From positions 1 through 44,977 of the forward strand of contig JYFJ02003214.1 in the NCBI GenBank assembly GCA_000934665.2: a stretch of 44,977 bases of DNA. The letters are read 5' to 3'. The number at the start of each line of letters is the position of its first letter. Position 1 is the first letter of the stretch. This DNA is from Catajapyx aquilonaris. Taxonomy: Eukaryota. A model generated the notes under the pieces. The model saw nothing but the letters and a program-made list of their open reading frames with translations, did not search any database and had not been told where the DNA came from. Below are positions 882 through 43,644 of the stretch, in pieces. The translations under genes were made by a program, and so were the position numbers.

Positions 882-2049
882 TACTGTATATAATGTAATT
901 CGCTAATTATAACAAACGCGATAAACAACACGTGACAACTACAATTTGACCTACGATTGATGGGTAAGTATTTCGGGCCTTTTCGGTTCGTCCGACTAGT
1001 CCAAAAATGGGGCAAAATGTAACCCTGCAGGACATGAATGGACTTGGGTGTAATCTTGAAATCTGTAGTAACAGGCTCCTCGGAATAGTCCAGCTGCGTA
1101 ATCCCAGGTGCAATCTGGCACAAATATCTTGTAATTGGAGTCAGACCTTATCTTAGGGATTCTCTCCGGGTAAGTAGGGGAAAAAGTCGGCTTTCTCCAG
1201 CTGCATTATGGCCTTCCCAAGAAGGGTGGTGGTGGGCCTGCCCCAACTGGTTAAAAAAAAACTCATTCCCAAACTTTTTTAATCCCGGCAAAAGTTGGAA
1301 TCATTCTGGTCGTAATGAGGTGATAAGAAGGGAGGGGACCTCGGAGATAAAAAATATATATAGAGGAAAGGAACGAATGGTGTGAAAAGAATATGGCCAG
1401 CGGGAATATGGGCCTGGTCTACAGAAAGGGATTTTTTTGTCTGTGTTTGTAAAGTGGCCGAGGGTGGGATAGAGGGGGAGGAGGGGGAAGGGGCTGGATT
1501 TCGCGATAAAGAAGACTGAAAGCACTTGGCTTGCATGGCCTCATTTCATAAAACCCAGCCCCCGTATTTACACTCCTGCTAATCGCCCTACTGTACTTGG
1601 GAGACCCCTTTTTTAATTGGGAACACTTTTTCTCCTTTCATTTATAGCTAGCTGCTTCTGCCAAATTAGTACGGTAGGCTTTGCAAGTAAGTATAGGCCT
1701 TTTTCAAACAGAATCAAGATGCACGGCAGTGCATCCGCCAAGTCTCAGCCACTTCCACCGCCACTGACCCGCACTATAGCCCCTTCTCTCATTTACTCTT
1801 ACGTCTCGCGCTGCCGTGTATCTTTACTGGAGCCAACTCGTACTCTACACTTCGGCATTTTCTAGTTCGGCACAGGAAAATGCTGCAAGTCTGAAATTTT
1901 AATACGACGATGGGGCACACCCGGGGACCATAAAAATAAATTGTCGTGAAATTTGGACCACTAGGTCCACAACAGGAGCGGGACCAAATTGGCGTTTTTT
2001 CTCCCCATTCATATATATATATATAGGGGTGGCGATAATCAAAAAGATT

Positions 2050-3097
2050 GGCCAGTTCCAGTTATCGTACAGATCCCAAATTTTTGTACAAAAATTGGCC
2101 CTCCTCTGAAACCCCCAGGAAAAGTCCAAAACCGGAAGTCGGCCATCTCGGGTCCAAACTGCCGCCATTCAAACACGAAAAAAATTCAGATTTCATCCAG
2201 AAACAATGAACAGACAATGAGCAATGAAAGACCGAAATGTTCGGGTACTCCCAGCTATGCTGGAAGCACCAAATTAGGCGCAAAAAATAGGCCCTGCTTT
2301 CAAACCTCCGGGAAAAGTCCAACATTGCAAGTAGGTCAACCCGGTTCAGGATGGTGGCCATTATAACAAGAAAAATATTCAGATTTCAACCAACAACAAT
2401 GACAACAATGTGAAGTGTTGCATAGCAATGTACTAGACTCTTTGACTAGCAGAACTGTAGCCTATATTATAGAGCAGTAGTAGTTATCCTGTGCTCCTCA
2501 TTTCCCTGTCCTCCTATACGCCTTCGGCAGGGATTACAACAGTGACTGCCACAAAAGAGGTAGCCATTTTGCCATAGAGTAATTCCACGCCGGAAGGTAC
2601 CGGAAGAGTCATTATCCAAAAATGAAGTAACGCATTGTGAGGTGGCTATGACTTATTGCAGAGGTTCCCAAACTGTGATCCACGAACCTTCTCCAAGTGC
2701 TCGGCGAAGAGGTAGAGGGATAAAATAATTCTTCAATAATTAGTTAATGACTTAATTTAGTCTCTCACTTCAAGGAAAGGCAGCAAATGGTTTTGATGTC
2801 ATGCAGTGATAAAGTACGAGGTGTGATCGAAAAGTTCTCGGATTTTCGATATACTCGTCCCGAGGAGTTGGGTTTTGAGGGGGTTCCTGAGAATACACCT
2901 TTTTTCGCCCCTCCCCCGTCCGCCCGGATCCCGGATTTGTGGTGGGTTGGGGGCTGGTATTGACCAGTTCCAATTATCATACAGATCCCAAATTGTACAA
3001 AAATTGGTCCTCGTCTGAAACCCTCAGGAAAAGTCTAAAGCTGTAAATCACCCATCTTGGGTCCAGACTGCAGCCATTCAAACACGAAAATAATTCA
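2050..3097 (+). repeat. Diverged ~140-bp direct repeats (2050-2190, ~2281-2400, 2962-3097), probably internal to an old non-autonomous element
   Basis: Shared string acagatcccaaat..tgtacaaaaattgg.cctc.tctgaaaccc.caggaaaagtc.aaa..gggtcca.actgc.gccattcaaacacgaaaa.aattca. Confidence 0.8.
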
Positions 3098-3353
3098 AAA
3101 AAAGGAACAATACATGATATATGGTCTCCATAGTACCAATGTATTGACATTGTTGCAAAGAGAATTCTAGAGGCTAGACGTGTCTTTCTCTCACTCTCTG
3201 TTCCAAATCAAACTCTTGGCTTGGTTAACGGTGCAGTTGGGTCTGTACACAGTGTTCCATACCACCCCGATTAGCCACAAAAAGTTAAATCCGTAAGAAT
3301 TAAATTTTCAATCGGTCAAGAGTTAATACCGGTTAATACCGATCAAGAGCAAA

Positions 3354-3772: not shown

Positions 3773-3934
3773 NGGGGGGGGGTTGTTTCGTCGTGGACAA
3801 TACTCAAGGTGAATGCAGCGCCAATAGATTCTAGGGACAAGGAGATTGGTCATACTCCGAGGCAGCTAATTTTTACTTTCTTCGTGTCATTCATTCATTC
3901 AACCTTGATTCAACTTAACAAAAAGTGGTGAGAT

Positions 3935-4684
3935 CCCCTCAAAAGCGCACTCGTAAAAAACGCGCCAAGTCTTCCGCCGAAAAAACCTGTGAGATGGTGT
4001 CTGGGTGCCAAGCCTTGTCCACTTCGCCGTACAAAGTCGTGAGATCGTGGTGGACGCCAAGCCTTTCTTCGAGGCTATAAGCTAAGTGAGATGACTTGGC
4101 CGGACTTGGTTCACGTGCACGAGGAACAATGCGATGCGTGGTTTAATACAATAGAAAGTAAACTTTTAACACTCATTGGTAGAGCCATTACCCAAAAATG
4201 CGCAAAAATGTGACATTCGAATGGAATATTTACTTTTAACTGTCAGTGGTGGAGCAGTAACGTAACAACTCCACCTTCAAATAATTACAAATACAGTTTC
4301 TTGATTCATTACAATAATTATAAATATACTTGGACCTCTGATTCGTATCACAGGACTACAAAATGTCATCTTCGAATCGCACATGATTAGAACCACACAT
4401 GATTACAATCGCGGTTTATTAGACTTGAAAATTGAGTCGTACAGCTAAAATTGGGTAACTTGACCAAATTCCAGCGAACTGAACGCGTATTGTTCCTCGT
4501 GCCCGTGAACCAAGTCCGGCCAAGTCATCTCACTTAGCTTATAGCCTCGAAGAAAGGCTTGGCGTCCACCACGATCTCACGACTTTGTACGGCGGAGTGG
4601 ACAAGGCTTGGCACCCAGACACCATCTCACAGGTTTTTTCGGCGGAAGACTTGGCGCGTTTTTTACGAGTGCGTTTTTGAGGGG
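3935..4684. mobile_element. Young foldback MITE with ~200-bp TIRs, CCCC..GGGG termini, flanked by AT (CMC/EnSpm-like, tentative)
   Basis: 3935-4130 is the near-perfect reverse complement of ~4488-4684. AT lies on both sides (3933-34, 4685-86). The core is non-coding. Confidence 0.88.
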
Positions 4685-5171: not shown

Positions 5172-5173
5172 TA

Positions 5174-6590: not shown

Positions 6591-6594
<4 letters not shown>

Positions 6595-6650: not shown

Positions 6651-6652
<2 letters not shown>

Positions 6653-7411: not shown

Positions 7412-8499
7412 CTGTAGGGCAGCGTGAATTTTGGTGCGATGGAAATGTTTTTGATGGACTGTCGCGACTGATGGAAATGAGCAGCTGGACACACACCATT
7501 CCGCATCCATGATACCGGGTATTGATACATTGCATTGATTTTTTTTTTCCTCTCACGTCTCGCTCGCGTTGGTCTGCCACCCAATGCATACAATGAAAAC
7601 TGAACCCTGTCCTGCTCAGATGCTGTCAAAAAATTCGGACGTATCGCGCATCTTTGCAGTTGCGCGATTTTATCACACATTTCTGCATATGTAGGCCAGG
7701 AATGAATTATTCGGACATGAAAAGTGTGTCGTCGGCATATGATGAAAACCAGTCCATTTAAATCAATTTGAGCCGGTTTCATACGCTCTTCCGGGTGTAC
7801 CATGTTTGCGAGTGAAATATTACTTGCTCGTAAATAATGAATGAAATCAGCCGTCTCGTCACATACACCAATGCCCAATGAGCACATCTGGCTGCTGGTC
7901 CCTATTTTCAATCCTCGGTGCCAAAAATGGGGGTTCCAACATATAGACATTATAGGTGTGTAATACTGGGCTCATTTACACGGCACCAAACTGGACTAGG
8001 TTCTAGCCCAGAAAACGCTCGACTGAAGCATCATCACGAAGGGAGTGGCGCTCAAATTACACCGCCATTAAATGGTGAAAAAGAGAGCTCTCCTGCTTTG
8101 CATTTTAGAGAGAGAGAGAGAGAGAGAAAAAAGCGCATCGAGAGCGGCTATTTCAAGCTTCGGACATGATAATAAAAGGCTCGATTGAACCCCCATAAGC
8201 GAGAATATTCCAAGCAGGAAACATCAATGCGCATCCCACCCTCTCTATTTTGCATATCGGCCGCTTTTTTGTGATGCTGAGACAATGGCGTCAAATGAAG
8301 GGATCGAGGGGCCAATAGTCGCTGACTATATGGAGATCCAGGTCTATATGATTTGCAGGGAATTGGTTCTAAAGCGCTTTATAATTATCCGAGTGTCCGC
8401 CTTTTCCAATTTTGACTCAACTGTCCACGTAGTACCATTACGCCTCATATAGATGGCGCGCTACTCCCACTCCGAGGGTAGTTCGAGAGGTCGTGGTAC

Positions 8500-8866
8500 T
8501 ATGAATATTTTAACGAACGCAACCGAGTGCGCACCCACATTCGCGCAGCTTCATTGTTCCGACAACAACGTTGCCAAAGTTACCCCCAGGACAGGTGCCA
8601 AATATTTTTATCGATAATTTGATTATTTAATTTTAGTCGATAGTGTTTCATACCCGTAGCCTTTCAGGTTTGTTCCAGAGCATTGGCAGCGTCGCAAACG
8701 TCGGCCATTTTGTTCACCCCAAAACGTAGCGTTGGAAATATAAGTGCGGAGCTTACTTACCAGGACACTCATTATACAGCGAGATTACCAGCTATCGTTG
8801 ATCATGCCAATTGCCAATCGTGCACGTTGCGCGAGCATAGGTGCGCAGTAGGTTGCGCACGTAACA
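8500..8866 (-). mobile_element. MITE family M1 copy
   Basis: cgcaaccgagtgcgcacc at the left end and gtgcgcagtaggttgcgcacg at the right end. Internal gtcggccattttgttc..cgtagcgttggaaat. Confidence 0.75.
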
Positions 8867-9602
8867 AGAGTGAACCAAAACTTGGCATAACTGTCGGAGT
8901 TGTACCATTTCTCTCACGTAGATGGCGCATTCTCCTCTGCACACTACTGGTACTCGGGGTAGTGGTGCTACATGCACCCAGGACAAACAGAGGCACAGAC
9001 TGAAGCCAATTCTATAACAGTTTGGCAGCGTCATCGTGTCCCGGAGCAAAGCCAATGGAATTTGGCCCAATCCCCCGCCTTTGTCTTGCTTTGCTGCCAA
9101 TGTTTCCGGCCAATTAGACCTAGGCCTATCCGCCCAATTTGCACACGTGGCAGGAGAGGATCAGAGTCTGTATTTGCTCTAGGCCTGAGACACATTCATC
9201 AGTGCTGGTGCATAGCCATGGGAGGCCTAAACTTTGAGGCCTAATCTGCCAGCGCCCGGATTAAAACCATTTGACAATCCTCCTGGGTTTGGCTCATTGC
9301 CCCTTCACTTTCTTCAAGCGTCATTAAGCAAATCGACTTCAACCCGACTTAGGCCCCTGTGACTTCAACCAGGTGTAAGAGTGTGGTACATTTCGCCTGC
9401 GAGTTTTCTCCACAAGCTCGACTCCCAAACGCCTTAGGTTGGGAATGATTCGCATGCATTATTTAAACCCCCATCCACACCGCCGGAGAACTGAATCGCA
9501 ATCGAAAAATTGCATGACTTTTCGAGCAGGCAGGATTCATAATTCATATTTTTTTTTGCAAAAAAACGAGCCATCTATTTTCAAACAGATTTTTAAATTA
9601 AA

Positions 9603-9655
9603 CTTAGAAATACCCTCCCTTCGCTCGCATTTTTCTAGGCCTGCGGCCTGCGGTG
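9603..9655 (-). mobile_element. Second copy of the Helitron-like 3' terminus
   Basis: Reverse complement reads gcaggcctagaaaaatgcgagcgaagggagggtatttctaag, matching 841-881. Confidence 0.55.
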
Positions 9656-10236
9656 GCACTGTCAAAGGACGTTAGGAACTGTTTACTCGTATTGTTGTGT
9701 GAGGGAGCCAATAGGAAGTTACGTGGTAACAATATGCGGCAGACCAATAAGAGGCCTCGGTCGAGCAACCAAGTAGTTTAATATTACAGATTGATCGTAT
9801 TGTTTGTGGAAATTTCGAAGGGGAAAAATATTTTGGTAAGCAAGCTGCATAATCACCATGAGAGGACATGAAAGCCAGTGACGCTCTTTTGTCGTCGTCA
9901 TCGTCGACGGGTTTTTTTTCTGCCCGTTGTCTGTACCCATGTCGATATCAGGCGTTTCGTTGCATCGAGATGAGCTTCCAAAAAAAAAAATTGGCTTTTT
10001 CATCATCAGGCTGTGACAACCGGAGCTTTTTGATTGGGTTTGTACCGCCAGACCGTCGCTGATCACAACAATGGTGCCAACCAAAACATGCCTCCGAGGC
10101 ATTGTCACCATCAGGCCAGTGCAGGTTCGGTGCATCGTTGACAAGGGAAGCGCACTAAAAATAGGCCATGTCACTCGTGTTCATAAACACAATCACATTT
10201 GCACATTCTGGCCTCCAAGTGTCATAATAGTAACTA

Positions 10237-10930
10237 GAGATGAAATTGTTTTTTTTGCGAGGGAGTGCGCACCACAGTTCGCGCAACGTGCACGGTTGGC
10301 ATTATCAATAGTGGATGTACTGCCCGGCACGTATTTCCAAAGCTACGCTTGGGGAGAACCAAAATGACCGACGCGTTCACGGAGACGACTTATAGTTAGA
10401 TGAAATTTTTATGAGCGCAACCGAGTGCGCAACACAGTTCGCGCAGCGTGCACGGTTGGGATTATCAATACACTCTAAGAAATGTCCGGGTTAAACGTAT
10501 TTATCCCGGAAAAAAGATCACTTTTGTCATGGTTATTTAACCCGGACATTTCTTAGAGTGTTTACACTCTAAGAAATGTCCGGGTTAAATAACCATGACT
10601 AAGAAATGTCTTAGTCATTTAGTCATTTCTTAGTCATGGTTATTTAACCCGGACATTTGTTAGAGTGTATATACACTCTAAGAAATGTCCGGGTTAAATA
10701 ACCATGACAAAAGTGATCTTTTTTCCGGGATAAATACATTTAACCCGGACATTTCTTAGAGTGGAGGCTGTATATAATGAGTGTAACTTATCTTGGGAGG
10801 GGAAGAACAAAATGGCCGATGTTTGCTACGTTGCCAAAATTCTGGGGAGTGACTCTGGCAACGTTGTTGTCAGAACAATGGAGCTGCGCCAGTGTAGCTG
10901 CGCACTCGGTTGCGCTCGTTAAAAAAACAT
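10237..10930 (+). mobile_element. MITE family M1: partial copy (10237-10375) plus full copy (~10395-10930) split by the CACT trimer
   Basis: TIRs ttttatgagcgcaaccgagtgcgca / tgcgcactcggttgcgctcgttaaaa. Confidence 0.8.
10471..10763. mobile_element. Trimer of a 90-bp CACT..AGTG MITE (CACTA/CMC-like): 10471-10560, 10565-10667, 10674-10763
   Basis: The 25-bp TIR cactctaagaaatgtccgggttaaa occurs six times. Copy 3 is the reverse complement of copy 1. Confidence 0.9.
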
Positions 10931-13671
10931 ATGTCGAGCAAGGAAACCGACTTGCGGAAAATTGAAGCCCGCTTTTAGCACACGACAAGCCTGATTTAAC
11001 CGACATATTGCATCACCGGGTTATATGGCTTGGAACTAACGTGTGGAAGTGCAGATGTGCATACACAAGCAACAGCGCCCCCCTTTTGCCTTCCTTTGGC
11101 AAACTCATCTATTTTGCAGGGGTGCCAGTGATGCCCAGCACCTCCCGCTTAATTAATCTGCTGAAGCTGCAGACACGAGCTGCTCGTGTAGCTAAAGCTT
11201 GTTTCTTAGCGTGAAAGAGGACGCTTCTTAATTAATTGGAGGGGGGGCCAGACCAACCTTTTGTGCCCTCAGCTTCCCAGGATTTTGATAAGGACCATAG
11301 GATCGATCCAGGATCAAAGCCCCGACCTTCTTCTCCAACCTACCGTTCATCCTCGCAATTTTTTTGTCAGACCAGTTTTACTCAACCCCATGCTTAGTGC
11401 AAATCCTTGTTATTCGCCACAAAATAAGACCTCGATCTCAATTATTGAAGCCAAACCACGCGTTTCATAATTAAGCTCACGTTCGCATCGGAGGAAATGT
11501 TCCGGGCTTTAAAATATTTGCAACCGTGTCCCATGCGAATATTTGCATCCGCTGCAATATTTTTGCGTCTCTCCTCGCGATGTCCGATTGTGCATTTTGC
11601 AGTTTGCATCTGACACCGCGTAATTACACGTCGTTTCAATTACCCCCGTAACTCTAGATTTAAATGGAATGTTCGAATTTTCAATCGTTTTTTTTTTTTG
11701 CAAGTTTGGCCCACGCCCCTCTAAAAAAAAAGTGCATCGCGCCCCAAAATATTGTTGGTTGGATCGAAATAATCGTCGAAGCAGTGAGTAGAAGTAGTGC
11801 GAAACGACAGCGCCAACTGGAGCGCGGAATCGAATAATGGCCACGTTATTACTCAACCTCGCCATTGTTGCAAAACCGAAGAAAATTTACCGAGTGTTTC
11901 GTAACAATCAAAAAAAAACTGTAAATAAAAGGCCCGCTCATTCCCCCGGAATGCGACATGTTCGCGAATGAGAACTATAAATGACGCGTCTATATTAATT
12001 GTTATTAGATCCAGTCTGCACCAAATCCGCAAAAAAAATTGTGTAGATTTTTTTTCTTCCATCCCCAGCATAATTGGCCAGGCGAATTTTTGCGCTGGCA
12101 TGTATTCTGGGTCAGGAATGCAATTTTTTTTTTTGCGATGGAGCGAGGGGTGGTCCCGCGGATTCCTCTAGTTTTCCCGGATTAGCTGGCAGCACTGGCG
12201 GAGACTATCCGGGAGATTTGCAGTTTAATTATACGGAGCAGATTGTGTGGGTAGCTCGCCAACCGGAGTATAAGCTTGCCCCGGAAATGCACAATTTTTT
12301 GCAACTCTCGCCGATTCGCATATGCGGCCGACGCGATTTTTTTGCGAGTGAATATTGGCAACGTCAATCATAAAATGGCGAAAGCATGTCCTATACATTC
12401 TTCGTCCAATACTAATATTTGGCTCAATTAGGCAACAATATTCACCCGGAAACTTTATCTCCTTATATGCTGCACCTTCTCAGGATCCGGGAAACAATTT
12501 ATTAGGAATATAAGCCTTGTTAAACTTATTAGTTCGCAAACTGGAATCTCCTAATATTCCAGAAAGTTGTCGTGTAATTAAAACGCACTTGTTAGGCCTA
12601 CTTGTACTTTTTCCCAACTTCATGAAAGATTCGCACTCTTGACACGGAACAGTTTCAATTACACATCATCCGATGCCTTCTCTTCTGGAGCCATCAATTA
12701 GCAAAATAATTTCGGCGCAGATAGGTCTAATTGCGGCACTATCACGCGGCAGAGGAATTTCATCAATATTTCGCGACCATCCGAGCAAATAATTTCGTCA
12801 ACCCTGGGTTCAGATCGAATGTCGACATCCGAGGCCAGACTCTGTCCTCATCCGGTCCAGCATCCCCGTTTTGATGGTTGGTCCCTGCCATCACTCGAGT
12901 CAATCCTGGTGATGGCCAATCAATCACTGTGGAGATGACTTCCGTCGTCAAACTGCGGAAGCGACGATCGCTCTCTTTTTTTTTATGCGGCCAGCCCAGC
13001 AACAACCCCCCCGACCTCTTTATCGCAGTCTCACCAAACCATCCTATAACTACCCATCAATCAAAATCCAGGCGGTAAAACACCGCAATTTCCACAACTA
13101 TTTTTTGGGGGAGGCCGCCGATGCTCATTAGTCTGGAAATTGCAAAAGTTGGGGACATATTGATTGCACCTTTAATTTGAATAGTCTTTCTCTCTCTTCC
13201 AGATGACACAGGCTAACCGATCGTTTATCAAGCCTTGTTATTCCTGTTTGTTCCTCTTTGGCCAATGTCCCTCCCCACAAAAACCAGCCTTTCCTTTCAG
13301 ATCCAAGAGGGGAAAAAAAGCCTTTTCCTCTTTTCACCCGCCATCTTTTTCTGACCGCAAAGCCCTTTGATTCCAACTCGACACGATCTTTCTTCTTCCT
13401 TTACAGTTGCCTCCAAATCCAGAGAGTATAATCTCAACACACAAGTGCTTCTTCCTTCTACTCCTCTCCACACATGCTCCGCAGACGTAATATTCTCACG
13501 AAGATTACAGGCACCTAAGACATCCTCAGGTCCAGCCAGGCCCAAGTAGAGAACGATGTACAGTATACTATCAGTATCAGGGACATAAAGTTTGTGATTG
13601 TGACGCTAACTGATTATGACAAAGGAGGCTTAGCTACCAACTCTGTGCATTTTGAAAACTCTCGGCGAGGT

Positions 13672-14038
13672 CAGGGAGCATATACTACATAAGAGACGCA
13701 AACATTCGATTTCCAAGTCTCTCTGTTTGGGGCGTTGCCAAGGCTCGCGGCCATTTTGAAGTGTGGGGAACGCCAACGAGGTATAAATAGGGTACAGGCA
13801 AAAATAGGGTCCGCCATCTTTGATTCGCGCGTGTTCTTGCCGTGTAGTTGCCATGGCCGCCAAAACCATCAAAGATGGCGGACCCAATTTTTGCCTGTAC
13901 CCTATTTATACCTCGTTGGGGTTGCCCACACTTCAAAATGGCCGCCAGCCTTGGCAACGGCCCCAAACAGAGAGACGCGAACATCAAAGGCGCCGACAGA
14001 AGTTTGCGCCTCTTATGTAGTAAGTTATATGCTTCCTG
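13672..14038. mobile_element. Foldback MITE family M2 copy, 7-bp TSD gcgaggt/acgaggt
   Basis: cagggagcatata..tatatgcttcctg with ~150-bp arms. Highly similar to the copies at 6949 and 20449. Confidence 0.88.
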
Positions 14039-15220
14039 ACGAGGTATTCTCTATTAATGATAGTTAATAAATTATAGTATGTATATCGCATTATTGATAA
14101 TTATCGCTAATAATAATTTGACTTTCCACTATAAACATTTTAATTAAAAAAATAAAGTCGGCGACGAGTGCGTCTTTTTGTGCCCGATTGTTTGCCATTT
14201 TTCTGGTACCTCGCAAATGTGTGTTTTTTTCGCGTTAATTCCCACTCCGGCAATTACGCTTTCAATGACCCAATCAACGCCAATCGGGTTCGATCATCGC
14301 CACATGTCACAGGGTTTTCGTGCTGCCATGGGCATCATCAATAAGTCGTTAAATTAGATAAAAAAAACAAACTCCAAACCGATTTGTTACATCGGTGGGC
14401 ATCAATGGCGCTTCAAATTGCGCAAGAATGCCAAATGAGTTGATCGATGGAATTCGTCGCGTATAATTAAAAGATTTACGACTATTTATCACATTGAATG
14501 TCGCGGGACTCTATATAATTATTTACTAAGAAAACCGTGGCATTCTCGATGTCGTCCCTTAGGAAACAATATGGCGGCCAATAATAATCAAAATGGTCGC
14601 CGTTGGTACAAAATCGTTTTTTTTTTTTTTTGTCGGTGGTTGGCGATTGCGGAGTCAATTCCAAACAATATGAAGTCGCTTATATGCGTTGGGGCTGACA
14701 ATGCAACACTGACCACACGACCCTTTCGCACACTGAGAGGCTGCATGATTGGAACGACCTGGGTGGAATAATTAATTAAATGTTGAACAATGTCGGGGTT
14801 ATTATTATTTTGGGTTTTAGGAGGCCGCAGTAGTTGATTTATCTCATGTGTTCCCATCTGGTACAATCAGAAAGTGAACATGTTCATTTACATCCTCCCG
14901 TCAAAACCCTGGCATCCTTCTCCAGCTAGAGGCTGGGGTGTATGAAGAAAACAACTGATGATCATTGCTGATTTATTGGTGAAAATATTCTCGTGCATCT
15001 CCAATGTCCATGTTCTGTATGTGGAATTAAGAGACTCGGTGGATGGGGCATTTAGGGCAGAGGGTGCGTGTTACACTTGCATGGGAATGACTTGTCAAAC
15101 TAATATATTGGGGTGGATCATTATACGTACAACAAATGAGAGGAATACACTGTACTTTCTTGTAGACGTGCAGCAAGGAAACCGGTGCGCACCCAGACAT
15201 CAAAGGAGAGGATTGAGGGT

Positions 15221-32651: not shown

Positions 32652-32654
32652 GTC

Positions 32655-32769: not shown

Positions 32770-33543
32770 GTTAGTATTACATAATATTTTGTAATCAGCG
32801 GATCTACCTCTTAATGACCACTTCATGGCCCTAGTTGCCTGGGCTTCCCCAACAAAGCAGCACCTTTTCATCCGCTGAGCCGATAGAGTAACAAAGCGAC
32901 GAGCGAGGTTGGAAATGACGGAATATTCATGGGGGCGGGAGGGGTAGTAGTAATATAAATTTCCAAAGTGTAATGCGCATAAACGGAGACTAACATGAGC
33001 ATAATCCGTAGGGAGCGAGGCCTCCAATTGGCCCGCATTTAACCAGATAAAAATGCGCCAGCCTCGCAATCAAAAAGGGTAATCAGCAATTTCAAGCACG
33101 CAATAAGCCAGCTTTTTTTTCCAGGGAGGGAAGCAGGCAACATCAACGTGCATCCTTTTCATGTCTCAACTCTCTTTTTGCCACGCGACATTATGTGAAC
33201 TCCGATTAAAAAGGCGGAGCTATAAAAAGGGGCCTATCGCGGACCAATAGACACGAATAACGACTGTAAAAGAACTTTTTGATAAGAAATGGAGTCAGTC
33301 TTTGACTCCTTAACCTTTGCTTCGATTCATATGAAATCAGTCGCTATTTCAATGGACTGTTGCTATAATATTACCGAGTGCGCACCCACCCTCGCGCAGC
33401 TCCATCGCAATGTCAGAACTGTCGGCCATTTTGTCACCCCCTCCTCCTTATGCGTAGCGTTGGAAACGGTTGGAAATAAGTGCTATCATTATTAGAATTA
33501 TTATTAGAATTATTATTAGAATTATTATTAGAATGCTTAACTA

Positions 33544-33603
<60 letters not shown>

Positions 33604-36600
33604 GAATTATTATTAGAATTATTATTAGAATGCTTAACTATAACCGAGTACGTATAGCCACACACGAGCAATGTTGCCAGAGTTACTCACGAGCCAAAAT
33701 ATTCGCACCAGTAGCATCTAAGGTTAGTCTTGGCAACGTCGGTCCTTTTCCAAGCGTGTAGCGTTGGAAATAAGTGCAGTGCAGTACACCTACTATACAA
33801 AGAGCTTACCAACTGTCATTGATAATGACAGTCGTGCAAGCTGCGCAAACTGTGGTGCGCACTCGGTCTCGCTATAGTTTTTTTTTAAAAATCAAGTACA
33901 GAGTAGTTCTACAACATGTGTCGTGCATGAGGGATTTGATCAACATGCGAGCAGGGCTTTTCCTCTTCCATGTCCCTTGCTCGGGTTACTCGGGTTGCTG
34001 GGCACACACAGCTAGAGCAAAGCCAGGGGATTCTTCGCCCGACTTGCTGCCGACGGTTTCCTCCAATTAGGGTTAAGCCGTTAAGGCCCCCCCCCAAACC
34101 TTCCTCATTTGTGCAAGGGACTTGCTCTTGACCTGGCCTACAGATACATCCATCCATCCGTCCAAAGTTTTACTCCAGCTCCCTAATCTAGTCCCGGCAT
34201 CATTTAGCAAATTGATATCAAGGACTGCTCCAATCACACGCATGCAAACACCACTGGAGAAACTCATTCTAAGCCAGTGGAAATATAATTACGGGCGACT
34301 TACGGATTTCATACGAGTCAGGATGGAGCTTGAATTGAATGGTTGCAGGAAAGAATCTGGGTCCCGCCATTGTCTCTTTTTTCGGGGGGACAGACTGGAA
34401 AATTGCCCCTTTTTTTCATCCCGGACTGGAATCTGACCTGGAGTCCGGTCCATTGTTCCTCCTTCCCCATTGCACAGGGGCTTCATTTTTCATCGGGGTT
34501 GAAAGGTGCACTTTTAGCTAGCATACCTCCAATGCAGGTCCAGCAGAGATGACTGCCGCGTATGGAGCGCAAGGGGACTGAAGGAGATTAAAACTTTTAA
34601 AGCCCTGCTTTCCAAAAAAAAAAGGGGGGGGGGGGCAATCTGTCTAAAAGTTTGCTCTACTCCCGTGATTAGGAGACTGAATGAGAGAGGGCCTTTCCTC
34701 AAATTACTTGCTTCAAAATTGCTGCTTTGCTTCGTGTAATGATGACACAACCCATTTTGGTCACGTAGGGTGTCATTACAGCTCCATTAATTGTCATTGA
34801 GGAACAACATGCATTTCGTTTGCATGCGATGAGCTTGTCACAAAATAGGAAATAAAACGACCCTATCGTCAATTGTTAACGTTTTTTTCCCCTCCACTTC
34901 CCCTCCCTGGTTTGTTGTCCCCACTTCCATTTGTTTCCTGTCCAGCTAAAGTCACTCGACCCATTTGTCTTCCTGAAGCTAGACACTTATAAAAAAGAGA
35001 TCCGGACTACCCCTTAGCTCCTCCCCTCCTTAATCCCTTTTCCAAGCGGATTCGTGGCCATTTTAATTTTTTATCGCTGTCTGTGCCAGGCTAAAAAAAA
35101 AACTCGTTCCGACATCCACTGCATTTATGCTTTCATTCATACTTCGTCAATCCTCCTAATCTCTCTTCCAGACTTTTATATATATAAAAAGCTGGAGGGG
35201 TTTAGTGCAGGAAGAGGACTTTCTGCCGTCTCTAATATGGATTTACTTCCCCGCACATGTCCATTTTAATATTTTATGCCTGGCCAGAAAAGGTTCGCGA
35301 ACGAGGATTGGGACCGTAAAAAAGCAGTCTTAAATTGCGTGGATTCCTATTTTGGTCAGAACCTGTCTGAATATAACTCACCCTGCAGGTGAGGTCGGGC
35401 AAGAAGCCTCGGATCAATGCAGCGGACAGAAGAAAAGAGTCGTTCGAATATTTATTGTTAAACTGTGTACTGTAATTGCAATAATTTCAGAGAGTACGAC
35501 GCATGGGCAGCTGATGATCACTCGGGAATTGGGCACGACAAGCAGCGATGTATCAACCCTGCCAACAACGTCGAGGCCAAGTGGTGTGGAAGAGAAGGAG
35601 AAGGAAAAGGAGGCCGCCCCGGGGCCGCCCCTGCACCATTATCACCAAGGCCCTCGCTACGGACCGTACTTCGAGGACGGCTCATCCTCTTCCAACGTCA
35701 CAGTTCGAGTCGGTGCCACGGTCCTCTTGGACTGTCGAATCGGGATGCTGCACGACAAAACAGTACGCAGTATTTTTCTTCTTAATTGGTATAAAAGGTT
35801 ATTTGAATCGTTACGAAACCTTACCTATCCTGACAGGGTCTCGGACTTTTCGCCCCCGCCGTTTCGCCCCCGTGACATATTCGTCGTGGTGGGCAAAGCC
35901 ACAATAACGTTAGTTGGCCTGCGGCGCCACAAGACGGACAGTAAATGTTGCGGATACAGAAACCCACAATAAGCGCCCAGCTCCGCTTCCGCTCCGTAAA
36001 AACTTAAAATATCACGCACGGGCGACGTACCGTGCCTGGCAGGGCCACAGGAATGGACAGTACTGTTGCGGTAACCAAAAAAAAAAACATAGAGCATCAC
36101 CAACACAAAGCGCACCTCCATCCCTGTGACCCAAGCAGAAGACCGCAAAATATTTTATAAATCAGGCATATTCATGGCTCGAGAAATGCCCAGTCGAATG
36201 CTTCAAAGTGGAATATGTCACGGGGGCGAAATTGTCACGAGGGCCAATATGCCGGGGGCTAAAAGACCGGGGATGAAACGGCGGGGGCGAAAGGTCCGAG
36301 ACCCTGTCAGGATAGGTTATGCGGTTTCGTAACGGCGGGGCGAAAAGTCCGGATCCCATTCCAACATAATATGTTGGAATGGGATCCGGACTTTTCGCCC
36401 CGCCGCGCCGTTTCATCCCCGGTCTTTTAGCCCCCGGCATATTGGCCCCCGTGACATATTCCACTTTGAAGCATATACATATACGAATTTGCTCTGAATG
36501 TGATCAGTACAGCGTGAAAGCTGCTTTTTAAAAGGGGGGGCAGAGAGAGATGTTCCTGGTGTCGTTGGGCTCACCCCATTCCGGGCCAGTTCCCCCATTA

Positions 36601-39600
36601 ATATGAGGCCCGCATAATTGGGAGCCGGCGCACACTACCCGGAACGCAACTTTTTGTGTGTGTATGTGTCCGGATCCTCTTTCCCGGATTAACGGCCAGG
36701 AGGCCATACCGTTGCAGTTTCATTATACGGGAGGTTGGTGGCCGAGCTACAGGCAGTGTTGCAACCCAAGGGCGGCCCATGGTCTGACTTTCAAGTCAGG
36801 ACCTAACTCTGAAGCCCCACTAATTTGAACGCAAATTAGTATAGAGTTAAACTTATTTCGCAAATAAAATGCATTATTCGCAAAAGTTACTCGCTTCTCG
36901 GAATCTTCTCAACTTACTGCATAGCATAATTAGAGAGCTCCAGCTCACCTTAAGCCTAGTCTCTATTAGAAGTAGGCAAGGGAAACTCTTGGCCAAGTTT
37001 TCTTGTCAATTAATAATGACGAATGAGGCAAGTGCGATTTGAAGTTTATCATCTCAAGTCCGACTCGAATCTAGAGTATCTGCGCTGTTTCCTATTTAAA
37101 TTTATTTAGTCGCGATATGTGCCTGCGTAATGGAATCTTTTCTATTAATCTTTGTTCAGAGAGAGTAATTGACACCGGGAGGCAGGTGTGAGTTCCTTTC
37201 CATTTCCCAAAACCCCAAAAGTAGGACCGCGGATCGAGTTAAGGAAGATGAGCCCTCGTTACTGCTCATTTGCTTTCGCTTCACCACTTTCCAGGTACGC
37301 AAACTTTATTCTGGCCCAAAATTATTGCACTCGTTTACCCAGCATCGGGAGTTGGGGAGGAGTTGGGCCGAGGAATTTAAACCAATTTGGGAATTCATGT
37401 TGAAACACCCCCCCCCCCTACCAGAACTACTGGCTTGTTACTAACCGACTCTTGTTTTAAAGCAGACGAAAACACAGTTTTCCGCCTTTTCTCTTTAAAA
37501 TCGCAATTAGCCAATAACGGCCATTCAATCCGATGCAGCCGGAGGGATATTGCGGCAATGCATGTTACAAAAAAAGGCGCGATTGCACAGCACCGCATTC
37601 GACATTAATTACATTACGTTGTGTTTACTCCACGATCATTTTACAGCAGTACAGTGCTGGACATTTATGGTGTCGTACTTGTCGCGCCACGAGCCGATGG
37701 CGGAAAAACAGCGAAATATTCAAAGTTGCCTCGGTACGACCGCTTCACTCGATTTATGATCCTGTGAAGGAAGTCATACGGAGAGCAAATTTCGATTCGC
37801 TCTTTTGACGAGGCGCAACCAGTACGACACCATCAATGTCCAGCACTTGTAGGCTACAACGAGTAGCCCTCAAGCCGTACCCTGATTGTTATTTTTCCGC
37901 AGGTTTCTTGGCTCCGTCGTCGGACTGAGGATGGAGACGGTGCCCTCGACCTTCTGACCTTTGGCAGACAGACCTACAGCAGCGACCAGAGAGTGTCCCT
38001 CTCCTTCAGGTACCCTGGAAACTGGCGTCTCTCCATCAGGTTCGCCAACAGGAGGGACGAGGGACACTACCTCTGTCAGATCTCCACCCACCCACCCACA
38101 GCACACATCGTCTACTTGAGGGTCACGGGTCAGTATTTAGTGCGCATGACCTGCCCTGAAACACATTGGGTGTGCAGCCCAGCAGTAAACAGCTTTGCGC
38201 TGAGGATGTCTCCTGAAGTAGTTTATGTCGAGCGAGCCCCTTTTTCATTCCTGTGGGTCGCCTCAGGAAGAGATTTGTTCCCGCTTCTCCCCATATCTCT
38301 TCCTAGTCACTCCCAAAAACCAGCTTTTCCTTTCAACCCCGGAAGGAGAAGGACCAGCCTCCCTCTTCCCCCTCGACGTCCTCCTTTTTTCCCCCTGACC
38401 GCAAAGCCCTTTGATTCCTGCGAGACACGATCCTTCTTGGCCTAATCCTCCTCTCCCCGAGTATCATCTCAACACACAAGTGCTTTTTCCTCCTACTCCA
38501 CTCCGCAGCCTCCGTTTCTCACGCGGATTACACACCAAAAGACATACTTAGGTCCATCCAAGCAAACTAAGGGGACATTCGCACTAAAAAAAAAAAGAGA
38601 GAGAGAAAAAGCACTTGGAAAAAGCAGCGGATAAAATCGAATCCATTCCTGACCTTGTCCGCTTGCAAACTTTGGCAACTTCGTAGATTGCTGTACGGGC
38701 GCAACAGAGTGCGCATCCACACTCGCGCAGCTCCATTGTTCTGACATCAACGTTGCCAGAGTTACTCCCTGGGGGCCAATAATTCACACTGCGGATGAAC
38801 TTTTTATGAGCGCAATCGAATGCGCGACACAGTTCGAGCAACTTGCATGGTTGGAATTATTAGCTGGTATGCATAGCAAGTGTACTGGTAAACTTATTTA
38901 CATCACTACGATTGAGGGGGTAACAATATGGCCGACTTCTGCGACGTTCCCGAAGCATGGCTACCTGTGTGAATTTGGCCCATGAAGAGTAAACTGTGGC
39001 AACGTTGTTGCTAGAACATTGGATATGCGCGAGTATGGGTGCGCACTCGCGTCAGTTGAGCTTTGAAGTTTGTTGCAGAGCTTTGGCAATGTCGCAAACG
39101 TCAGCCATTTTGTTTCCTCCTCAAGTGTGACGTTGGAAATAAGAGAAGCCCAGCACATCCACCAGAGAGCTTACCAGAATAATTGTTAATGCCAACCGTA
39201 CATGCTGCGCGAACTGTGGTGCGCACACTGCTGTTAAAGAATTTATGTATCATGATGCACTTTTTTTTCCACGCCAGCTCCAGAGCTGCGAGTGGTGGAC
39301 GAGCAGGGTCAGGTGGTGTCGGAGAGATACTACAAGGCTGGGTCAAGGGTCGAGCTGACCTGCCAGGCCTCGGAGCCATCTCCAGACGCCTCTCCCACCT
39401 GGCACCTGCAGGACCACGCCATCACTCCGAACAACTACTGGAGGGAAGGGGCCAGGTAGTTCTGATCTCTAAATTAGACGCTGCATCCATTGTTGCTCAT
39501 TGTTGCAAATATTTGCAGCGTGGATGGGAACGAGACGGTGGCCTTCCTCCGACTGGACGAGGCCAGAAGAGAGGACTCGGCCAACTACACCTGTCTGCTG

Positions 39601-39979
39601 GGGACCATGGCCAAGGCAGGGGTGGCCCTGCACGTGCTCAACGGTACATTCTCATTGTTGTATTAATTGAGGCAGTGCTGGTGACGTCGCTTTAATTTCA
39701 GGCGAGCTTCCAGCGGCGGCTCAGCAAGAGGACGCGTTGAACCGCGCGTCGCCGCGTCTGAGGTCCAGCTCTCCGACTGTTGTGGTCTTGGCCGCCTTGG
39801 CCGTCGTGGCCATGGCCACCGCCTGCCCCGGTGACAGTGACCACCCTGGAGGACTAGTTCCACTCCTGACCCACGACCCAGCTGCCCCAGACACGCAGCG
39901 CAACAATCTGTGTTCAACAATAAAGCGTGAAATGGCGAGTATACTGGAACACGACTATTCATTTCCAGTAAAGAGGTGA
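32655..39979 (+). CDS. dpr: Dpr-family (defective proboscis extension response / ZIG-8-like) 2-Ig cell-surface protein, 6 coding exons: join(32655-32769,35491-35762,37903-38128,39278-39455,39519-39643,39702-39979), 1194 nt, 397 aa
   Basis: All five introns are GT..AG with compatible phases (1,0,1,2,1). Translation gives a signal peptide ([25 protein letters not shown]) and a T/S-rich stalk. Ig1 reads [87 protein letters not shown]. Ig2 reads [49 protein letters not shown], followed by a hydrophobic segment. These motifs match my recollection of the Drosophila dpr14/dpr18/dpr20 subgroup; exact ortholog not resolved. Confidence 0.93.
33372..33872 (-). mobile_element. MITE family M1 copy or copies in dpr intron 1, hosting an expanded ATT microsatellite
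   Basis: accgagtgcgcacccaccctcgcgcagctcca..gtcggccattttg..gcgtagcgttggaaa. Right end gtggtgcgcactcggtc. Confidence 0.75.
33488..33641. repeat. Compound (ATT)n / (ATTATTATTAGA)n microsatellite with duplicated gaatgcttaactat
   Basis: Read directly from the sequence. Confidence 0.95.
35491..35762 (+). CDS. dpr: dpr coding exon 2 (stalk and first half of Ig1)
   Basis: Acceptor ataatttcag. Encodes ..[30 protein letters not shown]. Phase-0 donor aca|gtacgc. Confidence 0.92.
35809..36472. mobile_element. Rearranged M3 cluster in dpr intron 2: element 35809-36334 with extended inverted ends, plus inverted partial copy 36381-36472
   Basis: cgttacgaaacc..acctatcctgacagggtctcggac pairs with gtccgagaccctgtcaggataggt..ggtttcgtaacg. 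A perfect palindrome spans 36333-36405. Confidence 0.82.
37903..38128 (+). CDS. dpr: dpr coding exon 3 (second half of Ig1)
   Basis: Acceptor atttttccgcag. Encodes [38 protein letters not shown]. Donor g|gtcagt. Confidence 0.95.
38660..39235. mobile_element. Cluster of M1 fragments in both orientations in dpr intron 3
   Basis: gagtgcgcatccacactcgcgcagctccattgttctgac (38708), ttttatgagcgcaatcgaatgcgc (38802), tggcaacgttgttgctagaacattgga (38997), cagccattttgtttc..gttggaaataag (39102). Confidence 0.75.
39278..39455 (+). CDS. dpr: dpr coding exon 4 (Ig2 N-half)
   Basis: Acceptor ttttttttccacgccag. Encodes [36 protein letters not shown]. Phase-2 donor ag|gtagtt. Confidence 0.93.
39519..39643 (+). 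CDS. dpr: dpr coding exon 5 (Ig2 C-half)
   Basis: Follows a 63-nt intron ending atttgcag. Encodes [35 protein letters not shown]. Donor g|gtacat. Confidence 0.93.
39702..39979 (+). CDS. dpr: dpr coding exon 6 (GELPAA linker, hydrophobic anchor segment, tail)
   Basis: Follows a 58-nt intron ending tttaatttcag. GELPAAAQ matches the Dpr NGExPAAMQ motif, then [16 protein letters not shown], then TGA at 39977-39979. The true 3' end is uncertain (see findings). Confidence 0.8.
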
Positions 39980-42900
39980 CAAAATATTACCCGCTTTTTA
40001 ATACGACAAACATTTGCCTATATTCTATTTATTATGCAATTACTCGTTATTGGGGCTAAAAATTAAGTTAATCGGTCCAACGCGTTAAATATTTTTTCGC
40101 ATTAAAAAAAGGTGTATGGAAAAGTTAACAAATACGCCCCTGCTAATTACCCGCTGCATCAAAGAGCGTCGGTAATAATCAGGGTGTTAATTATTCTATC
40201 GGCACCGTGAGACTGCTGACACGAGTTTCATCGATACAGGCACGTGTATGATTAACTTTAATTGGGATTAATGCGTCATCGTGATGATATATGAGGGGTA
40301 TAGCTGCCAACATGTTGCAGCATGTGTAAGAGAGGATTACTCGCGTGTTTCAAATGGTATAACAAGAGTCGACCTCTTTCGAAGATAATTATATTAAATT
40401 TACGCCAAAATATTAATTTTCATTTTACATATTTTCATCCACTCTTTTACTATCCAAGTCCTTCGATGAGATTCCAGCAGATTCGTTACAAAAAGTGTAA
40501 CAAGCAGCGTGCTAAAAAAAATCCGCGTTAATTGGCCTAACGCCTTTAGACATTAACCAATAATTCCTATAGGAAATTGCCTGCCACTTTCTTCCCAACA
40601 ATCAGAAACCAACCCAACACTTTCTCCGAGGCTTGTTGTCCGGAGAGTGGTCATTGGGAAACCTCGCAGGTGGGCCAGCCAAAATCTTTAGAAAAGAATC
40701 TCGGGGGCTAAGAGGAAGGAAAAGGGGGAAAGGTTAAGTGGGTAATTAGAGTTCAATCGACGTGTACTGGATCGATACGCGCTTCCAAGACTAATCCGAT
40801 CGGTTTCTTTCCCGACACGTTCGTTTTCTTGCGATCAGTTTGAAGAGATCCCCGCACCTGCTGGCTCCAACATATAATTACTTTTATCCAACAAGTAAGC
40901 CAACTGATGTAGCCTCAAATGTGATTGTTTCCATTTTTAAGCAGATGTCGCACTGTGTACATAAAAGTCATATTTTCTTCCCCCGCCAACTTTTTCCCTC
41001 CCTTCCTTCTCCCAACATAATTTCCATAATCCTGGAAAAGCAGTGTGGCGAAAGCTTCATGTCGGACAGATCCCAGGCACAGAAAAGCCTCCTCCTTCCC
41101 CCAACTCTGAATATCATTTCAATCTCATTTCGCTTCCCAACAAAACCGCTTGCTCGACACCAACTGCGTCCTAATGAAATTCAGGCTCCTTATACACACA
41201 CACCCAACCAGCCACAACAATATTATGGGGCCCTTTCTTAGCCATTTTTTTTTTTTTTTGTCCAGAAAAAGGACCTGCATTGGCCTACTTTTCTTGGACA
41301 AAACACTCGCCAGATGATGTGATGTTCCGCTCCCTTAAAATGGTTCGCCTCATTTCTTCATGTCCTGGAGGAATGAGCTGGTCCAATTTGTACCTCCTAA
41401 TTCGGCCCATTCGACCCATAAATAGACTGCGATGGTCATCAGTGGTGTTGACCACCACTTGGAAGTCCAGGAGGACTCGTAATTTGACTACACCTGCGCT
41501 TATTTTTGTTACACACACACTAGACTATAATTAGGCCAGTTGGGGACCTTCCTTTTTTTTAGGCGAAAACAACCGCACTCCAATTTGCATGCAAAAACAG
41601 GGCACTCAGCACTGGACAAGAGCAGATTGCTTGCTTCATAAACCCTTCTTGCCCGGTGGATATTTACGTGTGAATGAAGCTGTTGCATGTAAACAATGCA
41701 ATTGGCATTAGGCAACAGAGTCGCAATTTGCGAATATTACGCATGTTACAATCGCGATCATTTTTCTGACATTGCAGTATATAGATTTTTAAATTAGGCC
41801 AGAAAAATTCCCAGGCACTCTTCCGTAATATAAGTCATTTTTGCGTGAAAAATTAGCACGGGGGAAAGTCTCATTACGCGAAGGAAACAATTCCTGCGGC
41901 ACAAATTTTTTTTGCGCGACATTTTGCAGCTTTATGGGCTTTGATCTTCATTCATTTCCCCCCTCCCCTTTTCCAAAATTGCGTAGAAAAGGTATACTTA
42001 CGCCTCCGTGGATGAATACATTTTAATTAGAGCTGGGCGCCAGCACTCTATCCTCGCGACATTAATTTCAGGCTGTAAATTACTTTGCGAATCGCTGCAA
42101 AACCCATCGTAACATTCGAGCAATTTGTAGCCACCTCCCTTTCTTGCCAAAAGGACCAGTGTTGTTTGCGCCACAGAGTTAATCAACTCGCAATTAATGC
42201 GGAGTATTTTTTGCAAGCCATTTGTCAGGCTCGAATTACACGTAGTCGTATTAATGTACTGCCGAGCTCGGTTCCATCTTTCAACTTTTGCAATGAAAAT
42301 GTGGAGAGAGTTGGAAATAAAGAAGGGCTATAGTAATATGTCAAAATGTAATTTTTTTTCTCTCTCTAGAATATACACGTAACTATTGGTGCCAACTTCT
42401 TTCTCACTGGATGGTAATGAGATTTCCCCATCCTTTGGCATAATTAATCCCATCCAGGCGGGAGATAATTAATCTGGTATGCTCGGGTGCACATGACGGA
42501 GTCTGCCTCTCAAGACGGATTAGACGCAAACGCTCTTGCCAAAATCTTGGTCACTTTCTTCGTGTCTAAATTCTTTCAGGGCTTACAATAGCGACGTGTT
42601 CATTCCCCGTGAAAAATAATTTTCAAGCAAGGCTCGAGAACATTGCACCGTCGCGTCGGACATACAGTACAGCAGACATGTACACGACATTTACGCGAGT
42701 GTGACCAGCAGACTCAGATTGAAAAGTGGGTCACCGCACCCGAATGAAAAAGCCATTAAAATTTTTGGACGTGGCTTCCATGTGGTCCGAACTGATTTCA
42801 TGAATAATTCGCGGTTGATTACTCTATATTTACTCGCCATTCCACGTTGCCAATGTGAAATTAAGGCGTGACAAAATTATTTGGGTATATTAGAAGATGA

Positions 42901-43644
42901 AACCTTGCATTCAAATAATCCCTTCGACCCTCGACAACATGGACGAAATAAGTCGCATTTTAGAGGGTTTTGCCTTTGGTGTCCACAGGACGTGACCTGG
43001 TTTATGAAGGGGAAAGGGCGATTTGGAGGAAAGGTTCTTGCAGGGCATCGGAAAAGCTATTATACCTGGGGAGCAGCTAATTCTTCCCTTCGGAGGTTAA
43101 AGGCCCTCATCCTTGTTTCCTCATTCGCGTCACACTCTCGTTTTATCGCCAATCAACGACAGAAGCTGGAGGAGGAAAAGGACAGTCTGGCTCAAAAAAG
43201 TGGGGGTTATTCTAATTTTGAAGCCATGAAATTCTTTCAGCTTATTCGCAACAACAATAGTGTTTTTTTCAGAATATAAAAGAGGTAAGTCATGTGGAGC
43301 GAGAGAATGTAACAAGAGCAAACAACTGGCGACCACAACATATTTCACCTCCTCGTCTTTGTGCGTGGCCAGTGGCCGGCACACACCATTTTTTTTAAAT
43401 CTCTCCTCTTTGTTGGTCCAACAAATGGCCGGCAGTTAGTTTGAAATATTACGCCCGGCCACCTATACAAGCCTTTGGCAACAAGAGCCTGCAGCCAAAC
43501 AGATGCACAGAGCTCATTCCAAATGTGTTGACCGCGCCAAACATCACTTCAGCCTAAGTGAATTATGATCTGCAATTTTAACCGTATATGCATCGACAAT
43601 GACAGTATTTTGGTTACTTAGATCTTCTGGCCCTGCTCCCTTAA

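Follow-up and report, generated by a model that had tools for sequence, protein, structure and literature searches.

The window analyzed here (44,977 nt of Catajapyx aquilonaris, contig JYFJ02003214.1) contains a collinear pair of segments of ~5.4 kb. The downstream copy (copy B) has the exon-intron structure of a Dpr-like gene. In the upstream copy (copy A) the anchors are single-copy and exons are undetectable. Copy A probably stems from a partial duplication of the 5' part of the Dpr-like gene that took place locally and long ago. It would have decayed nearly to saturation, except for one 275-nt non-coding block that is preserved unusually well.

The collinear core and its flanks

A sequence-only reading had proposed a backbone that spans positions 999–43557, occurs twice and is marked by 17 anchor pairs whose offset drifts from 29 to 22 kb. 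All 17 anchor strings are found where that reading had placed them, and most of the matches end after 8–11 bases. In a word-7 blastn comparison of positions 1–22500 (A) with positions 28501–44977 (B), nine of the 17 anchors (999, 6537, 7877, 11161, 12068, 18736, 19132, 21375 and 21555) are outside every HSP, and the HSP at anchor 17633 has a score of 12, which is chance level. Four anchors (8212, 9044, 9321 and 12218) are located in weak HSPs (score 14–19) and are meaningful only via their collinearity. Anchor 1313 is inside the HSP 1259–1373/30912–31028, and anchors 13351 and 13431 share the HSP 13267–13541/38306–38563; these two strong blocks are significant.

The two halves share 700 exact matches of at least 10 nt on the same strand, which allow a collinear chain of 52. 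The corresponding values are 754 and 49 for the inverted, 501 and 40 for the reversed, 547 and 38 for the complement and 277 and 29 for the shuffled control. Chains of 8–11-mers carry no information. The best same-strand chain of the unmasked sequence (446) exceeds that of the inverted control (359) by a modest margin only, because the MITE families are present in both orientations.

For the permutation tests 8248 bases were repeat-masked and both strong blocks were masked additionally. The gap-penalized same-strand chain then has a score of 140.7 compared to 88.5 ± 14.2 (1 of 1,000 permutations), and a second gap-penalized value, likewise masked, is 114.3 compared to 53.8 ± 10.0 (0 of 1,000). 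Without gap cost the excess shrinks (224 versus 173.6 ± 19.9, 11 of 1,000 permutations). One tight diagonal is common to five HSPs, with a null maximum of four (0 of 1,000). The same-strand diagonal hence persists above permutations in a self-comparison of the window with masked MITEs, the check that had been proposed along with the backbone. Its sole source is the region 8212–13541 of A with 33131–38563 of B (0 of 500 permutations, with the 275-nt block included or left out); the limits of this core were picked after inspection of the data, the a-priori test being the masked chain with 1,000 permutations. The left flank (284–500 of 500 permutations) and the right flank (200–394 of 500) are null, and the middle control gives 32–410 of 500. 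As the core is above the permutations and the flanks are null, the two regions are a genuine collinear pair of ~5.4 kb. The core chain consists of nine HSPs with offsets of 24327–25039, and the 275-nt block (offset 25039) has its diagonal in common with the weak islands (24859–24972). Neither a backbone from 999 to 43557 nor the drift of its offset is supported by these tests. The remainder of the proposed 42 kb is composed of chance short matches and ordinary MITE families.

One similar block stands alone at 1259..1373 (+ strand). It pairs with 30912–31028 at an offset of 29653 (70% identity over 121, E 6e-9), is partly purine-rich and has no collinear link to the core. Several same-strand matches at offsets of 24.9–30.4 kb are MITE copies, and the repeat families occur in both orientations. 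Within core A, high-copy MITE sequence extends from 8414 to 9034 (depth 7314/2188/769, baseline ~31), and a member of the family occupies the corresponding position of core B (33373–33887). It is followed by a high-copy repeat at 9449..9862 (depth 4356/1807) and a MITE cluster at 10070..11104 (depth 493–8841; inverted repeats I3, I9, I14, I17 and I21). This cluster sits where exon 1 would be expected. A very high-copy palindromic MITE is located just right of core A at 13589..14200 (depth 99088/116778/10371), and further copies of it are found at 6929–7418 and 20449–20813.

Copy number in copy A was estimated from the depth of ~257 Mb of contigs at a likeness of at least 80%, so that copies less than 80% alike are invisible. 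The anchors and the 275-nt block of copy A have depths of 26–48 at this likeness, which corresponds to the single-copy baseline (~31). The depth of the adjoining MITEs is 100–3000-fold higher (bins from 493 to 116778). A second alternative offered by the sequence-only reading, in which exons and transposons are threaded through a gene-independent scaffold repeated genome-wide, is thus extremely improbable. Nothing except the chain of short matches speaks for it. It conflicts with the nine unaligned anchors, with the long chains of the inverted, reversed and shuffled controls, with the null flanks and with the single-copy depth (at least 80% likeness) of the copy A anchors; the high-copy sequences are ordinary MITEs in both orientations.

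Gene-bearing copy B and exon-less copy A

Core B (33131..38563, + strand) begins ~2.3 kb upstream of exon 1 and takes in exons 1 and 2, the intron between them and 435 nt at the 5' end of intron 2. Exon 1 (35448..35762, + strand; donor GTACGC) encodes the first half of Ig1 along with a signal-like segment. Its open frame lacks an ATG ahead of this segment, and a further 5' exon is therefore expected. Exon 2 (37903..38128, + strand) covers the second half of Ig1 and is assigned by PDB matches, splice sites and a Pfam V-set match below threshold (E 0.0016, 19 bits, cut-off 26 bits). Ig2 corresponds to 39278..39643 (+ strand), as judged by homologue alignment and splice sites, and the stops in a straight read-through of this region imply a short internal intron. 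The second Ig region of P0001 (residues 182–287) and that of P0002 (residues 193–303) align to 39262–39645, in line with a two-Ig architecture. Two insect homologues back the identity of the gene, and a source names one of them zig-8-like. In the homologue comparison a C-terminal exon was not found; three coding stretches lie within the window.

The dpr label of the sequence-only reading agrees with the best matches among solved structures, which are Dpr6 (1.5e-10), Dpr10 (4.3e-10), Dpr2 (9.8e-9), DPR1 (1.7e-8) and ZIG-8 (2.2e-8). The matches to DIPs are weaker (5.8e-7 to 1.7e-4). These comparisons support a Dpr/ZIG-8-type two-Ig neuronal adhesion gene in copy B. Dpr, DIP, IgLON and ZIG-8 are described as the 'wirin' family of neuronal Ig receptors (PMC6525511). 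The copy B gene resembles this family in a V-set Ig1 that is closest to Drosophila Dpr6, Dpr10, Dpr2 and DPR1 and C. elegans ZIG-8 and in a second Ig domain. It differs in its visible extent, as its three coding stretches in the window are without a located start codon or C-terminal end.

Core A (8212..13541, + strand) is unique DNA broken up by MITEs and carries the chain of nine HSPs at single-copy depth outside the MITEs. Eight islands precede the 275-nt block, all of them on the + strand. Island 1 (8212..8236) pairs with 33131–33155 (22 of 25 positions identical), islands 2 and 3 (9044..9126) pair with 34015–34079, island 4 (9318..9342) with 34197–34221 and island 5 (9949..9985) with 34808–34845. 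The counterparts of island 6 (12173..12236; 36680–36730) and island 7 (12519..12540; 36846–36864) are in intron 1 of copy B, and island 8 (12941..12975) pairs with the start of exon 2 (37913–37947). In copy B the collinear anchors thus precede exon 1, fall within introns 1 and 2 and, in one case, coincide with the start of exon 2. As they interleave with the parts of the gene, copy A derives from the gene locus and not from a mobile element.

Exons were not detected in copy A by tblastn with E ≤ 10. A faint exon-2-like, F-strand-like peptide trace is present at 12980–13012 beside island 8 (score 37, rank 9 of 2423 windows), at the expected place and on the expected strand (p ~0.04 by a rough estimate), and is not robust. 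The equivalent of exon 1 only has rank 25 of 2423 windows. On the DNA level the alignment score of the exon-2 region (14) does not exceed those of shuffles (10.7 ± 1.2, maximum 14). Residual homology between the anchors is absent, with a combined z of ~1.3 over 10 segments (3.09, 0.76, -0.30, 0.47, -1.08, 1.90, -0.85, 1.11, 2.49 and -3.35). The weak islands alone fit simulated neutral decay to ~52–57% identity, at which the protein signal would be lost. An old same-strand duplication with an exon-less upstream copy, the first alternative of the sequence-only reading, therefore holds for the 5.4-kb core with its collinear anchors and lack of detectable exons, but not for the 42-kb span.

The 275-nt intronic block

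The most similar part of the core is a non-coding block at 13267..13541 (+ strand) in copy A, which is 70% identical over 286 nt (E 5e-30) to 38306..38563 (+ strand) in copy B. The copy B block is located in intron 2 and starts 178 nt 3' of the exon-2 donor. The homology starts abruptly and includes an exact 24-mer and an exact 20-mer. An open frame common to both copies is absent. The depth of the copy A block is 31.2/28.7, i.e. single-copy at a likeness of at least 80%, and one contig of 1975 nt covers 11723–13697. A structured RNA gene is not supported: there are no Rfam matches in the window, and the consensus folds have energies of -20.85 and -36.25 kcal/mol over ~300 nt, with two sequences being too few for covariation. 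Metagenome scans for conservation across species were empty.

The sharp edges of the homology would also fit a discrete inserted element. It is unlikely that no duplication took place, with the block being an old low-copy interspersed repeat pair, e.g. a decayed SINE-like element, and the weak islands chance matches or other old-repeat fragments. An A-rich tract (~38590–38610) after the copy B block only hints faintly at a retroposon, mobile elements abound in the window (36 inverted-repeat pairs), the block identity of ~70% resembles that between MITE copies and the depth test sees nothing below 80% likeness. However, 13175–13588 attracts no further contig, whole or partial, at a likeness of at least 80%, while MITEs draw thousands, and the block has no TIR, TSD or Rfam match. 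Furthermore, it is on the diagonal of eight independent single-copy islands, which form a significant chain even when it is left out (0 of 500 permutations).

Signs of uneven conservation, with invariant cores within diverged DNA, are seen in the 275-nt block only. The block stands out against uniform neutral decay: in a simulation that assumes uniform rates and short indels, 0 of 300 runs gave a short HSP with a score of at least 88 and a runner-up of at most 19. Its matches are clustered, with P = 0.00045 for a longest run of at least 24 and both exact runs (24 and 20 nt) in 0 of 20,000 column shuffles, a test that is inflated by gap columns. Both results would be compatible with a real duplication in which copy A persists as functional DNA, its islands and above all the 275-nt block being cis-regulatory modules, which is possible but rather doubtful. 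Such modules could act on the neighboring Dpr-like gene as an alternative promoter, as silencers or as enhancers of the duplicated or shadow type. A cis-regulatory skeleton kept as an enhancer array, as envisaged in the sequence-only reading, would be a speculative version of this. The block is single-copy, non-coding and without a known RNA family match, and the gene requires an additional upstream 5' exon, so that the transcription unit may include copy A. In vertebrates, paralogues are documented to retain conserved non-coding elements and to divide these between them (PMC1896008). On the other hand, large patchy indels or gene conversion could mimic the picture beyond the assumptions of the simulation, gap columns inflate the run test and the weak islands could well be neutral remnants. 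That selection has kept the 275-nt block and perhaps some islands specifically as a second distal regulatory module of the Dpr-like gene, which lies 25 kb downstream, in the role of a shadow enhancer or of an alternative promoter region, appears distinctly unlikely on present sequence comparisons. The better preservation of the block may be due to constraint on its short cores; other explanations would be gene conversion or a patchy turnover of indels.

Origin of copy A and relation to known systems

In the preferred reading of a decayed partial duplicate, a segment of ~5.4 kb would have been copied long ago in direct orientation to a position ~25 kb upstream. The direction and the mechanism of this duplication are conjectural. 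In the Dpr/ZIG-8-type gene the copied segment would have reached from the upstream region through exons 1 and 2 into the start of intron 2, and the remaining parts of the gene either were never in the copy or would have been lost from it. Without them the copy would have been non-functional as a coding unit and decayed. The exons of copy A have presumably decayed rather than never been copied. MITEs have inserted in both copies, and only islands of 22–64 nt and the 275-nt intronic block are alignable today.

Copy A shares with decayed partial gene duplicates (relics of local or tandem segmental duplication, unprocessed pseudogene fragments) a homology to the 5' part of a neighboring gene, introns included, that is collinear, on the same strand and single-copy. 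Further common traits are the absence of an intact reading frame and the later transposon insertions in both copies. In relics of gene duplicates the exons are usually the most recognizable part. In copy A, on the contrary, they are undetectable, and an intronic block has survived better than they have. The short, ordered, same-orientation non-coding islands in otherwise unalignable DNA are also reminiscent of the duplicated conserved non-coding elements of paralogous loci described by Woolfe and Elgar 2007 (PMC1896008). There, each of the two paralogues has retained its gene, and deep conservation across species serves to define the elements, whereas here only copy B carries exons, copy A is without a gene and the similarity is known within one species. 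MITE and SINE families are suggested by the MITE-rich window, but the core anchors and the 275-nt block differ from them in single-copy depth (at least 80% likeness), in collinearity and in the lack of TIRs and TSDs.

The main value of the analysis is corrective. A chain of 8–11-mers assembled by eye over 45 kb is uninformative, and the proposed new kind of genome organization is absent. The remaining feature is an ordinary but cleanly delimited evolutionary relic, a partial duplicate of the dpr family whose exons have vanished and of which one intronic block is recognizable. If this block is constrained, it would be a compact case of regulatory DNA outliving the coding sequence with which it was duplicated, and would bear on the diversification of expression in the large dpr family.

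The Dpr-like gene and its repeat surroundings

The window consists of 44,977 bases of eukaryotic DNA with a G+C content of about 45% and a single N at position 3773. Its sole recognisable gene is Dpr-like and lies on the + strand. Three coding stretches were mapped on this strand, 35448–35762, 37903–38128 (exon 2) and 39278–39643 (Ig2), by tblastn with two insect proteins: P0001, an uncharacterised protein of Anabrus simplex (E-values 4e-24, 6e-18 and 8e-15), and P0002, which its source lists as 'zwei Ig domain protein zig-8-like' (8e-20, 1e-8 and 7e-8). The gene model agrees with the splice signals. The nearest solved structures to exon 2 are Drosophila Dpr6, Dpr10, Dpr2 and DPR1 and C. elegans ZIG-8 (E-values 1.5e-10 to 2.2e-8), with DIPs scoring below them; the Dpr/ZIG-8 family is treated in PMC6525511. 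There are 168 open frames of at least 75 aa, of which 138 were searched against Pfam (the 30 left out are mostly overlapping and include 12702–12935 on the + strand); this gave one relevant match, a weak V-set hit at 37867–38442. In metagenome contigs, a pattern for the exon-2 peptide was matched by 472 stretches, none of them a relative.

The open frame of exon 1 (35334–35762) contains no ATG ahead of its signal-like segment. The gene therefore requires one or more short 5' coding exons further upstream, possibly many kilobases away. The Ig2 stretch is interrupted by stops on straight read-through, which points to a tiny internal intron, just a few tens of bases long. Intron 1 harbors MITE-like inverted repeats at 35823–36474 and 37653–37847; one begins about 60 nt past the exon-1 donor and another stops about 55 nt short of the exon-2 acceptor. 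Judged by position, they may be close enough to the splice sites to matter for splicing.

Palindromic MITE-like elements are densely packed in the window (36 inverted-repeat pairs) and several repeat families are present in both orientations. One family comprises 4739–5385, 8501–8868, 10224–10924, 33373–33887 and 38695–39272, another 22400–22624 and 35809–36474, and a third 6929–7418, 13672–14038 and 20449–20813. The palindromic MITE family at 13589–14200, 20449–20813 and 6929–7418 has arms of about 100–120 nt with 90–97% complementarity. With a summed contig depth of about 1e5, over a baseline of about 31, this family is by far the commonest element seen. A foldback element at 3933–4686 (201-nt arms, 98% complementary, spaced by 352 nt) looks like a very young insertion. 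At the left edge of the window, a tandem repeat (1–267, 3.7 copies of a 72-nt unit, 94% match) is truncated.

Collinearity after repeat masking

The sequence-only reading had proposed a collinear, same-strand backbone over 42 kb, marked by 17 paired short matches (anchors). The anchor strings are present at their positions, but most of the matches stop after 8–11 bases. In a sensitive blastn search, nine of the 17 anchors fall in no HSP, one in an HSP of score 12 and four in HSPs of score 14–19. The other three belong to two significant alignments, 1259–1373/30912–31028 (E-value 6e-9) and 13267–13541/38306–38563 (70% over 286 nt, E-value 5e-30). Exact same-strand matches of at least 10 nt between the window halves number 700, with a longest collinear chain of 52, compared to 754 matches and a chain of 49 in the inverted control and 277 matches and a chain of 29 in the shuffled one. 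Matches this short cannot tell signal from noise. In the unmasked sequence, the chain scores 446 on the same strand, compared to 359 in the inverted, 168 in the reversed and 194 in the complement control; MITEs account for the high same-strand and inverted values. An initial diagonal map was densest at about 2–7 kb (offset about 27 kb); this cell was discarded, since it pairs an ATT-rich simple repeat at 6193–6220 with the tandem array 33484–33641 and does not represent homology. This array is internal to the MITE copy 33373–33887.

Once 8248 bases in repeats and tandem arrays are masked, the chain on the same strand scores 351 versus 154–180 in three controls, or 228.7 versus 71.5–104 with a gap cost. 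The a-priori test was a null of 1000 permutations, in which HSP partners were shuffled and both significant alignments were masked as well. The chain then scores 140.7 with gap cost (null 88.5 ± 14.2, reached in 1/1000 permutations), 114.3 for a second gap-cost figure (53.8 ± 10.0, 0/1000) and 224 without gap cost (173.6 ± 19.9, 11/1000). Five HSPs share one tight diagonal; the null maximum is four. The only source of the signal is 8212–13541 (copy A) against 33131–38563 (copy B) at offsets of 24327–25039 (0/500 permutations whether or not the strong block 13267–13541/38306–38563 is included, for core limits that were picked post hoc). The left flank (284–500 of 500 permutations), the right flank (200–394) and a middle control (32–410) are at null level. 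Accordingly, the backbone is supported for a core of about 5.4 kb but not for the rest of the 42-kb span.

The other significant alignment, 1259–1373/30912–31028, lies on the same strand at an offset of 29653 and shows 70% over 121 nt; it is partly purine-rich and includes an exact 15-mer. A tie to the core has no collinear support.

Gene parts and the preserved block in the two copies

In copy B, the anchors are positioned upstream of exon 1 (33131–34845), in intron 1 (36680–36864), at the start of exon 2 (37913–37947) and 178 nt into intron 2 (38306–38563). This arrangement around the gene parts indicates that the 5' portion of the gene locus gave rise to copy A. No exons are detectable in copy A. 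A MITE cluster (10070–11104) fills the predicted site of exon 1, and the counterpart of this exon comes 25th among 2423 windows. The predicted site of exon 2 shows a faint Ig F-strand-like peptide (score 37, rank 9 of 2423), and the DNA alignment of the exon-2 regions is no better than that of shuffles. Between the anchors, no residual DNA homology was found. Members of one MITE family (8501–8868 and 33373–33887) occupy the two copies in equal orientation and at relative positions that agree to about 50 nt; either the insertion is older than the duplication or the site is a common target.

The 275-nt block (13267–13541, paired with 38306–38563) has no reading frame common to both copies and no TIR or TSD. 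Rfam gave no matches, this block included, and the consensus folds of the two blocks are unremarkable on either strand. Its exact 24-mer is absent from the metagenome contigs searched. An A-rich tract follows the block in copy B, so a retroposon origin is conceivable.

In simulations of uniform neutral decay with short indels, the short, weakly matching islands of the core are on their own compatible with an identity of about 52–57%, and 0 of 300 runs yielded a short HSP scoring at least 88 with a runner-up of at most 19. Matches within the block are bunched, with one run of 24 nt and another of 20 nt; none of 20000 column shuffles reproduced this, a result inflated by gap columns. As an outlier from neutral decay with clustered runs, the block may be constrained, may be younger due to gene conversion or may have survived patchy indel turnover.

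Copy number and origin of copy A

Contig depth was determined for region 8000–14200 at a likeness of at least 80%, using contigs from two DNA runs of one sample (about 257 Mb each). Depth is 26–48 at 8000–8413, 9035–9448, 9863–10069 and 11105–13588, which takes in all core islands and the 275-nt block, and 493 to 116778 in the MITE stretches; summed depth does not translate into a number of copies and serves solely to contrast unique with repeated sequence. The 275-nt block has depths of 31.2 and 28.7, and a single 1975-nt contig spans 11723–13697. In a further run, X5, coverage is confined to the MITE parts. The test covers the region of copy A and sees copies that are at least 80% alike. A genome-wide repeated scaffold, one of two explanations offered earlier, is not supported.

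The other explanation, an old dpr duplicate whose upstream copy lost its exons, is right in kind for the collinear core of 5.4 kb, but it does not extend over 42 kb; the enhancer array that this copy was proposed to form is hypothetical. The excerpted text of a paper on the dlx cluster (PMC3024246) does not address the retention of conserved non-coding elements after gene loss. Retention of such elements between paralogues, described in PMC1896008, is the nearest published analogue of the island pattern. The two copies probably go back to an ancient partial duplication, in direct orientation, that took in the 5' portion of a Dpr-like gene; this duplication has decayed to near saturation and has retained one unusually well-preserved intronic block.
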